Shown: positions 3 to 1,735 of the stretch, piece after piece
Position numbering within the stretch: the stretch's first letter is position 1
Layout: each line of letters begins with the position of its first letter
Source of the DNA: Escherichia phage ECO95 1-6-1
Sequence record: OR845713.1
Reading direction: 5' to 3' (one strand)
DNA: 1,735 nucleotides
Notes under the pieces: generated by a model
Told to the model about the DNA's origin: nothing
Databases searched by the model: none
What the model saw: only the letters and a program-made list of their open reading frames with translations
Program-made: the position numbers and the translations under genes

Positions 3-1735
3 GATGGCCTGTGTACCGCCAGGGTCAACGGCCTGGAGGAAACCATCCTCTACAGCCGGGATGCCGCAGGCCGCCTGGCAGAAGTCATCACTCCGGAAGG
101 CAAAACGCAGTATGCGTATGACAAATCCGGCAGGCTGACGGGTATCTTCAGCCCGGACGGCACATCACAGCGCACCGGCTATGATGAACGCGGGCGGGTG
201 AATGTCACCACTCAGGGCCGACGGGCCATTGAATACCACTACCCCGACGAACACACCGTCATCCGCTGTATCCTGCCACCGGAAGATGAACGCGACAGAC
301 ACCCCGACGGATCCCTGCTGAAAACCACATACCGCTACAACGCCGCCGGAGAACTGACGGAGGTTATCCTGCCGGGGGATGAGACGCTGACGTTCAGCCG
401 TGATGAGGCGGGACGTGAAGTGCTCCGGCACAGTAACCGGGGTTTTGCCTGTGAACAGGGCTGGAATGCAGCCGGTCAGCCTGTCAGCCAGCGCGCCGGA
501 CTTTTCCCGGCGGAAGCCACATGGGGCGGACTGCTCCCTTCACTGCTACGGGAATACCGTTACGACAGCGCGGGTAACGTATCAGGCGTCACCAGCCGGG
601 AAGATTACGGACGGGAAACACACCGGGAGTACCGGCTTGACCGGAACGGCCAGGTCACGGCGGTGACAGCCTCAGGCACCGGGCTGGGCTATGGCGAAGG
701 CGACGAGACTTATGGCTATGACAGCTGCGGCTACCTGAAGGCGCAGTCTGCGGGCAGACACCGGATAAGCGGAGAGACTGACCAGTATGCCGCAGGCCAC
801 CGGCTGAAACAGGCCGGAAACACACAGTATGACTATGACGCCGCAGGCCGGATGGTCAGCCGCACAAAACACCGTGACGGCTACCGCCCAGAAACAGAGC
901 GGTTCCGGTGGGACAGCCGGGACCAGCTGACCGGGTATCGCAGCGCACAGGGGGAGCAGTGGGAATACCGCCACGACGCCAGCGGCAGACGGACGGAAAA
1001 ACGCTGCGACCGGAAGAAAATCCGTTTTACGTACCTGTGGGACGGCGACAGTATTGCGGAAATCCGGGAATACCGCGATGATAAACTGTACAGCGTAAGG
1101 CACCTGGTGTTTAACGGCTTTGAGCTGATAAGCCAGCAGTTCAGCCGGGTACGACAGCCGCATCCGTCCGTGGCCCCGCAGTGGGTGACGCGAACGAATC
1201 ATGCGGTGAGCGACCTGACGGGCCGCCCGCTGATGCTCTTTAACAGTGAAGGTAAAACCGTCTGGCGGCCGGGGCAGACCAGCCTGTGGGGGCTGGCACT
1301 CAGCCTGCCCGCAGACACAGACTACCCGGACCCGCGCGGGGAGCGGGACGCGGAAGCCGACCCCGGCCTGCTGTATGCAGGACAGTGGCAGGATGCAGAA
1401 TCGGGGTTGTGCTATAACCGGTTCCGATATTACGAGCCGGAAACCGGGATGTACCTGGTGAGTGATCCACTGGGGTTGCAGGGAGGGGAGCAGACTTACC
1501 GGTATGTGCCGAATCCTTGTGGGTGGGTTGATCCGCTGGGATTGGCTGCAAGTTCTAAAATCAGCAGTTTGATGGACTATATTGGCGATGGTCGTCGTGT
1601 TAGTGGGCATACGGGTTTCCTGGATGGGGTTCGTTTATCACGTAGTCAAATAAACAATATTGCTAAAGAAATGGAGAAGCTAGGAATTAAAGTAATAAGG
1701 AAAGCAGATAAATATTTGCCACCAAATGCTAGGGC
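3..1735 (+). CDS. rhs: Rhs-family YD-repeat protein (polymorphic toxin), internal fragment; both ends of the gene lie outside the window
   Basis: Frame 3 is open across the whole window (hand translation, no stop). Translation contains many YD-repeat units (e.g. QYAYDKSGRLTGI at 108-146, TYRYNAAGELTEV at 327-365, EYRYDSAGNVSGV at 552-590, QYDYDAAGRMVSR at 825-863) and the Rhs core terminus LLYAGQWQDAESGLCYNRFRYYEPETGMYLVSDPLGLQGGEQTYRYVPNPCGWVDPLGL (1368-1544). High-GC core followed by an AT-rich tip is the classic enterobacterial Rhs architecture. The paralogue (rhsA/B/C/D...) cannot be resolved from this fragment; the symbol is given at family level only. Confidence 0.93.
51..1100 (+). repeat. 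YD-repeat array (protein-level degenerate repeats forming the Rhs shell)
   Basis: Repeated Y/F-x-Y/R-D-x-x-G-R/x-L/V units read directly from the translation at nt 51-77 (YSRDAAGRL), 111-137 (YAYDKSGRL), 174-200 (TGYDERGRV), 330-356 (YRYNAAGEL), 393-419 (FSRDEAGRE), 555-581 (YRYDSAGNV), 630-656 (YRLDRNGQV), 711-737 (YGYDSCGYL), 828-854 (YDYDAAGRM), 903-929 (FRWDSRDQL), 966-992 (YRHDASGRR) and 1032-1064 (YLWDGDSIAEI). The repeats are degenerate at protein level and not tandem at DNA level. Confidence 0.85.
1368..1544 (+). other. Conserved Rhs core C-terminal segment with two DPxGL motifs; putative aspartyl autoprotease site, predicted cleavage after Leu at 1542-1544
   Basis: Translation LLYAGQWQDAESGLCYNRFRYYEPETGMYLVSDPLGLQGGEQTYRYVPNPCGWVDPLGL. 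Asp codons at 1464-1466 and 1530-1532 lie 22 residues apart, each in a DPLGL context. The segment ends with the canonical PxxxxDPxGL (1515-1544). In characterised Rhs/TcC proteins this region forms the autoproteolytic site that releases the C-terminal toxin; recalled from the literature, not computed. Confidence 0.8.
1545..1735 (+). other. Variable C-terminal tip of the Rhs protein (putative toxin domain), N-terminal ~63 residues only; family unassigned
   Basis: Starts at the first codon after DPxGL. GC falls to about 40% (hand count 77 G+C in 191 nt) against about 63% in the core (38/60 for nt 1-60). The protein sequence is unrelated to YD repeats and rich in K/I/S. The frame stays open to the window edge. 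Confidence 0.7.

Follow-up and report, generated by a model that had tools for sequence, protein, structure and literature searches.

A predicted two-aspartate autoproteolytic site at the boundary between an Rhs shell and a Tox-MPTase4 toxin of Escherichia coli type

Introduction

Near the end of the DNA studied here two DPLGL pentapeptides are encoded a short distance apart, and the question is whether they mark the place at which an Rhs protein cuts itself and releases its C-terminal toxin. A first-pass annotation of the window, by which we mean the whole stretch of 1,735 nucleotides that was analysed (sequence record OR845713.1), had proposed such a release site at 1464-1547. According to this proposal, two Asp residues form the site as in structurally studied Rhs and TcC proteins, and the cut lies between the Leu encoded at 1542-1544 and the Ala encoded at 1545-1547. 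Here we address whether the two residues correspond to catalytic Asp residues of known homologues, which bond would be cleaved and from what kind of gene the sequence may come.

Results and Discussion

Reading frame and the two DPLGL motifs

We found that the window holds a sole long open frame, frame 3 of the + strand (3..1735), which gives a translation of 577 amino acids and has no stop at either edge of the window. The first DPLGL (gat cca ctg ggg ttg) lies at 1464-1478 and comprises residues 488-492, and the second (gat ccg ctg gga ttg) lies at 1530-1544 (residues 510-514), directly followed by the codon gct for Ala515 at 1545-1547. Asp488 (1464-1466) and Asp510 (1530-1532), the predicted first and second catalytic residues, are 66 nt or 22 residues apart, and the translated site reads ...YLVS-DPLGL-QGGEQTYRYVPNPCGWV-DPLGL-AASSK.... 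The positions of both motifs and of the Ala, as well as the Asp spacing, had been annotated exactly, as translation and a regular-expression search confirmed.

Residues 488-514, DPLGLQGGEQTYRYVPNPCGWVDPLGL, are a full match to two motifs that have been defined for Rhs proteins, DP(I/L)GxxGGx5Yx8D(P/S)xG(L/W) (PMC11461821) and PxxxxDPxGL (PMC8765631). The match to the latter is PCGWVDPLGL (residues 505-514, 1515..1544), a core-end motif that includes the second DPLGL.

The feature at 1464-1547 is purely protein-coding and is read in frame 3. The two 15-mers that encode DPLGL are alike at 13 of 15 bases. The repeat exists at the protein level, and a DNA-repeat reading of the pair was set aside for this reason. 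The other frames of 1441-1560, on both strands, are either broken by stops or lie inside three ORFs (672-1610 and 1300-1551 on the - strand, 1462-1572 on the + strand). An antisense, overlapping-frame or RNA reading of the site was rejected as well, as none of these ORFs has a Pfam match and no Rfam family was found in the window.

Domain architecture of the window

In a Pfam search of the window translation, PF05593 (RHS_repeat) reached 100.7 bits in four stretches, and TIGR01643 (YD_repeat) reached 97.4 bits. Residues 452-514 (1356..1544) match TIGR03696 (Rhs_assc_core) with 69.5 bits at a cut-off of 32.5 and cover profile positions 13-76 of 76. This model spans both DPLGL motifs, and its last position falls on Leu514. 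The core end of Rhs proteins has been described as plug and protease (PMC8636562, PMC8765631), and we assign 1356..1544 to an inward-spiralling C-terminal plug with an aspartyl autoprotease.

The polymorphic toxin starts directly after Leu514, where the G+C content falls from 0.62 to 0.40 (0.619 up to 1544, 0.403 from 1545 to the end of the window and 0.362 for the whole toxin CT). Together with the alignment to a solved Rhs shell and the identity to an orphan toxin module of O157:H7, both described below, these matches assign the window to the last 514 residues of the Rhs/YD-repeat shell (3..1544) of an Rhs protein that belongs to a type VI secretion system (T6SS) of E. coli, followed by the first 63 of about 150 residues of a predicted Tox-MPTase4 toxin, a zincin-like metallopeptidase (1545..1735).

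NF041261, the model for RHS element core proteins of the RhsA-E type, has a cut-off of 2000 bits and scored 91.2, matching the core end only, the window being a fragment. A classical K-12-type Rhs core was rejected on this score. The low score and the best PDB match, Rhs1/Tre23, show an Rhs lineage apart from K-12 RhsA-E.

Catalytic aspartates and the scissile bond

The whole window translation, and then its last 134 residues, were compared with all PDB chains using phmmer. The best match of the whole window was Rhs1/Tre23 from P. laumondii (7pq5, residues 837-1346), with E=1.3e-97 over 517 residues, and the last 134 residues matched the same structure with E=8.9e-22. At E=1e-97, the relationship to 7pq5 is close enough to settle the predicted fold. 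Across the site, the phmmer alignments of the core end are free of gaps for three T6SS Rhs structures, namely 7pq5, 7q97 and 8uxt.

In Rhs1 (7pq5), Asp488 and Asp510 fall on D1316 and D1338, the latter being Asn in the D1338N construct of this structure, and Leu514-Ala515 (1542..1547) falls on L1342-A1343. Mass spectrometry and N-terminal sequencing demonstrated that the Rhs1 shell ends with Leu-1342 and that the toxin starts with Ala-1343; D1338N abolishes cleavage, and the second Asp is the only one mutated in that study (PMC8636562). The pair falls on D1324/D1346 in RhsA from P. protegens (7q97, construct offset 60), where an exchange of either Asp for Asn blocks cleavage as well as T6SS killing and the protein is cut after W1350 (PMC8765631). 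In Tse15 from A. baumannii (8uxt numbering) the corresponding residues are D1369/D1391, both of them Asn in the PDB sequence, and it has been shown that the double Asn mutant is uncleaved (PMC11461821).

Alignment with structurally studied Rhs proteins was the check that the first-pass annotation had named, and it makes Asp488/Asp510 homologous to the catalytic Asp residues in RhsA, Tse15 and Rhs1, with the second Asp proven in Rhs1. The reading as a two-Asp autoproteolytic release site is supported by this result, and the annotated cut agrees with the bond that was experimentally measured in Rhs1.

The predicted cut lies four residues past the second Asp, as it does in TccC3, where the pair is D651/D674 and the cut is L678-M679 (bioRxiv 10.1101/590430). 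The PDB core constructs 8qjd and 8qjb and the 4o9x chain terminate at the aligned Leu, and TcC structures match the core end of the window by sequence with E of about 5e-6 in phmmer. In homologues from Stenotrophomonas that have a spacing of 23, there is one residue more than in T6SS Rhs proteins immediately ahead of the conserved NP, the first Asp still being in the first DPxG. By analogy with these homologues, and from the TccC3 sequence, D651 would be the D of the first DPxG. The spacing and the cut position that the first-pass annotation gave for TcC and Rhs proteins were right, with the minor correction that the two Asp residues are 23 apart in TcC and 22 in T6SS Rhs.

Proposed mechanism of toxin release

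We consider it highly probable that this DNA codes for the end of an E. coli T6SS effector, a PAAR-Rhs protein of the Rhs-MPTase4 ('Rhs-CT1') type, in which Asp488 and Asp510 would cut the Leu514-Ala515 bond and free the toxin. Following the mechanism described for the family (Busby 2013 and Meusch 2014, as presented in citing papers; Jurenas 2021, PMC8636562; Gunther 2022, PMC8765631; Hayes 2024), the last 60 or so residues of the shell would form an inward-folding plug, which would also act as an intramolecular aspartyl protease. Asp488 and Asp510, placed side by side, would bring about hydrolysis in cis four residues past Asp510, that is, at Leu514-Ala515. The metallopeptidase toxin of about 150 residues, with the N-terminus AASSKISS..., would in this way be freed and would stay enclosed in the shell and associated with it, largely unfolded, until delivery. 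Cleavage would be necessary for toxicity, not for secretion.

Catalysis, retention in the cage, the timing of cleavage and its requirement for toxicity are what we infer from knowledge of the family, and cleavage of this particular protein is predicted from its sequence. The frame is open at the 5' edge of the window, while the protease needs a complete shell. On the timing of cleavage, autocleavage of an E. cloacae Rhs protein was not detected inside the producer, as cited in PMC8636562.

Among the known systems, Rhs1 from P. laumondii (Plu0353, Tre23, 7pq5; Jurenas et al. 2021, PMC8636562) is a class I prePAAR T6SS Rhs protein and is alike in having two DP(L/T)GL motifs, Asp residues 22 apart and Leu/Ala at P1/P1'. 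It differs in its toxin, the ADP-ribosyltransferase Tre23 instead of Tox-MPTase4, and in its first motif, which is DPTGL. P. protegens RhsA (7q97; Gunther et al. 2022, PMC8765631) has in common with the window the aligned Asp pair with a spacing of 22 and a plug/protease domain that seals the cocoon, whereas its second motif is DPLGW, the cut follows a Trp and the toxin is another one. The TcC proteins (TccC3 of P. luminescens, 4o9x/6h6e; YenC2, 4igl) use the same aspartyl autoprotease and hold the toxin in a cocoon. However, apart from the longer Asp spacing with its one extra residue before NP, their shell is made from TcB and TcC, delivery is by TcA and not by a T6SS, and they have neither PAAR nor N-terminal cleavage.

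A system of the same species is the E. coli Rhs-MPTase4 protein (Rhs-CT1) with its immunity protein CTI1. It is described as a T6SS antibacterial effector that occurs in full-length and in N-terminally truncated forms (PMC6730261; bioRxiv 10.1101/2024.03.05.583533, summarising Ma et al. 2017). In the parts of these sources available to us, which treat toxicity and delivery, we found no mapped C-terminal cleavage site for E. coli Rhs-MPTase4. It would resemble the protein studied here in the vgrG-eagR-rhs type of locus and in the Tox-MPTase4 family, and its truncated forms are orphans.

The toxin module in E. coli

The toxin-coding part of the window, 1545-1735, is 100% identical to an orphan module of E. 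coli O157:H7. The full CT of this orphan, which includes HEVIH, matches PF15640 (Tox-MPTase4) with 117 bits, the cut-off being 25; the window ends before the HExxH. Of the 5,426 complete E. coli genomes, 2,255 have a single place that spans 80% or more of the window.

A complete homologue with the same toxin, 1620 amino acids long and 96.4% identical over the window, was found in isolate UR21/11-869. [quoted passage not shown] Asp488 and Asp510 are equivalent to its D1444 and D1466, and it has a DPLRL allele. The gene order at this locus is vgrG, a gene for a DcrB/Eag-type chaperone, rhs and an ORF of 69 amino acids, which is presumably the immunity gene. The main rhs gene of O157:H7, which is identical to window 1-1349, also lies in a locus with vgrG and a DcrB-related gene.

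The same toxin module was found in reduced forms as well. At one locus it has an internal stop and the N-terminus is missing, in E. coli CDC#03-98 it is an orphan of 444 amino acids, and many E. coli genomes have it as an orphan or as a fragmentary pseudogene that carries neither PAAR nor a start signal.

A mosaic of main and orphan rhs sequences

As the reference for the mosaic comparison we used the rhs locus of E. coli CDC#03-98 (O157:H7-type). Window 1-1349 has no mismatch to the main rhs of this locus and window 1275-1735 has no mismatch to its orphan, so the two identical stretches overlap by 75 nt (1275-1349), and the switch from main rhs to orphan rhs-CT is placed within this interval. 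Between 515 and 1274, the window and the orphan have 38 differences. The exact mosaic was not found in the 5,426 complete E. coli genomes, the best of which is 99.4% identical over 1200-1735. An exact scan for the 99-mer that covers the junction (1268-1366) gave no match among the GTDB species representatives and none in the JGI metagenomes. Given its absence from all three collections, an assembly chimera is possible, and from its sequence the window would be either a real recombinant of main and orphan rhs or a chimera that was mis-joined via the common 75-nt stretch.

These observations bear on an alternative to the release reading, namely that the site is a true one by its ancestry but has no activity in this context. 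If the sequence belonged to a fragment with an orphan rhs-CT, or if reads of main and orphan had been joined computationally, there would be no full shell and no cleavage, and the conserved core-end DNA would mainly be a homology block for toxin swapping by recombination. The identity of 1275-1735 to the O157:H7 orphan module, the frequency of orphan and pseudogene versions of the toxin module and the missing junction all fit with this view, and a 75-nt overlap between main and orphan is the type of repeat that short-read assemblers mis-join. However, the first 1349 nt are those of the main rhs and differ from the orphan of the same genome, as they would in a real fusion. Moreover, fusions of main and orphan rhs genes have been demonstrated experimentally in Salmonella (PMC3967940), natural full-length Rhs-MPTase4 genes exist, as in isolate UR21/11-869, and the frame is open across the whole window. 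We regard the idle site as unlikely. The cleavage site itself is intact whether the sequence is a recombinant or a chimera, and in a mere orphan fragment it would be latent.

Returning to an active release site, the mosaic may have a biological origin. A tentative reading, to which we give slightly less than an even chance, is that main and orphan rhs recombined recently in an O157:H7-like E. coli, with a crossover within 1275-1349 onto the downstream orphan. In such an event the resident toxin/immunity pair would have been deleted, and the silent Tox-MPTase4 would now stand behind an intact autoprotease site. A comparable process has been described for Salmonella Typhimurium (Koskiniemi et al. 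2014, PMC3967940), where the main rhs joins a downstream orphan rhs-CT via common core-end sequence and the orphan toxin lands behind DPxGL. The mosaic of the window has precisely this structure. That case differs in species and toxin, and here the event would be deduced from one 1.7-kb sequence that is possibly an assembly artefact.

The boundary between shell and toxin in homologues

For the position of the boundary we used database matches that carry both DPxG motifs and are short fragments. These homologues show conservation over the 27 residues that end with the Leu, and what follows it directly is one of about 20 unrelated sequences, among them NKGASL, AKTSVP, TPCPWQ, FCGSSQ, SCKKTS, WTFPSE, GILPQN and ATCPII. 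An Asp is present at the D of the first DPxG in every one of them (at -22, and at -23 in two from Stenotrophomonas), bar one visibly degraded sequence. In the three E. coli alleles that were compared, DPLGL is followed by AASSK, AICQL or VGCST, and nucleotide homology between E. coli alleles stops at 1524-1540.

These data also speak to the question of which motif is used. A cut after the first DPLGL (Leu492-Gln493), or after both motifs, instead of after the second only, might be considered, as the pentapeptides are identical and the local P5-P1 sequence cannot tell them apart; furthermore, one database fragment (P0033), an allele with a 22-residue deletion, fuses the first DPLGL directly to AASSKISS. 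Against this stands that the inter-motif segment of 17 residues (GGxxxYxYxxNP) belongs to the core and shares its conservation, variability of the toxin starting only past the second Leu, and that the TIGR03696 model takes in both motifs. In Rhs1 the sole C-terminal cut found by mass spectrometry and N-terminal sequencing lies after the second motif (PMC8636562), and RhsA and TccC3 are likewise cut four residues past the second Asp (PMC8765631; bioRxiv 10.1101/590430). We hold a cut at the first motif to be very improbable.

That a protein so full of repeats carries the pentapeptide twice by chance or through low complexity, with no role in processing, is hardly credible and is refuted by the alignments: Rhs proteins do contain many repeats and much D, G, P and L, but the 577 residues contain exactly two DPxG[LWF] sites, both belonging to the DPLGL pair, where composition predicts 0.024 (and 0.0013 for DPLGL), two or more such sites arose in 7 of 20,000 residue shuffles of the translation, and the two sites agree in their location, distance and flanks with a curated domain model and with four homologues that have been studied by experiment.

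Conclusions

Overall, the site is a standard example of C-terminal autoproteolysis sites of Rhs proteins, in an effector family already described for E. coli, and as such it is already known biology. It adds nothing to the mechanism, which structural and biochemical work on TcC and T6SS Rhs proteins established between 2013 and 2024. What is gained is reliable annotation: the boundary between shell and toxin is placed at 1544/1545, the released toxin is predicted to begin with AASSKISS, and Asp488 and Asp510 are the residues whose exchange would give a non-cleaving control.

Mild novelty lies only in the view that the mosaic is a recombinant. If true, this would represent a natural 're-arming' event that is present in none of the 5,426 complete E. 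coli genomes. The mosaic of main and orphan rhs may then be a small, concrete case in which the conserved core end doubles as a recombination handle for the exchange of toxins.

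Composition and origin of the window

Using the main rhs gene of the O157:H7-type E. coli for comparison, we found no mismatch across window positions 1-1349, and positions 1275-1735 match the downstream orphan rhs-CT of this E. coli type equally without mismatch. The switch from main to orphan sequence lies in the overlap of these two stretches (1275-1349). The mosaic junction was absent from all 5,426 complete E. coli genomes, the GTDB species representatives and the JGI metagenomes searched. Either main and orphan genes recombined to give the window, or it is an assembly chimera.

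Where the Leu codon gives way to the Ala codon and the toxin part (1545-1735) begins, the G+C content falls sharply, from 0.62 to 0.40; for the whole toxin it is 0.36. Since such an abrupt drop is the usual sign of different origins, it suggests that core and toxin cassette have different sources. On the minus strand, an ORF of 312 codons (672-1610) spans the GC-rich core; it gave no match in a Pfam search and most probably owes its existence to the codon composition of the Rhs frame.

Decay and variation of Rhs-MPTase4 genes

Several genomes carry the same Rhs-MPTase4 gene in a decayed form. The Ec1119 copy (L001:7957-10995), placed behind a main rhs with an AHH toxin, is interrupted by an internal stop and has no N-terminus, and the copy in 2013C-3181 (L004:3134-7995) is frameshifted. 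All four examined loci still have the downstream 69-aa ORF (WP_001299578.1) in intact form, consistent with the retention of an immunity gene.

Among the homologues inspected, the only intact full-length protein is encoded in isolate UR21/11-869 (L003:3135-7997, NZ_OU342919.1). Here DPLRL replaces the second DPLGL (residues 1466-1470), a Gly to Arg exchange at P2. Because G677A at the equivalent position of TccC3 leaves ~40% of the protein uncleaved (bioRxiv 10.1101/590430), this allele may, by analogy, be processed poorly. Two Stenotrophomonas Rhs core ends (P0052, P0053) resemble TcC proteins in their Asp spacing of 23 residues, with an extra residue before NP. Both terminate in DPDGM, showing that P1 tolerates Met besides Leu, Trp and Phe.

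In P0033, a partial E. coli database sequence, 22 residues are deleted between the two motifs, and the first DPLGL runs straight into AASSKISS. The DPLGL-coding 15-mers of the window are identical at 13 of 15 bases, and the deletion possibly arose by slippage or recombination between two such 15-mers. It would leave a site with a single Asp.
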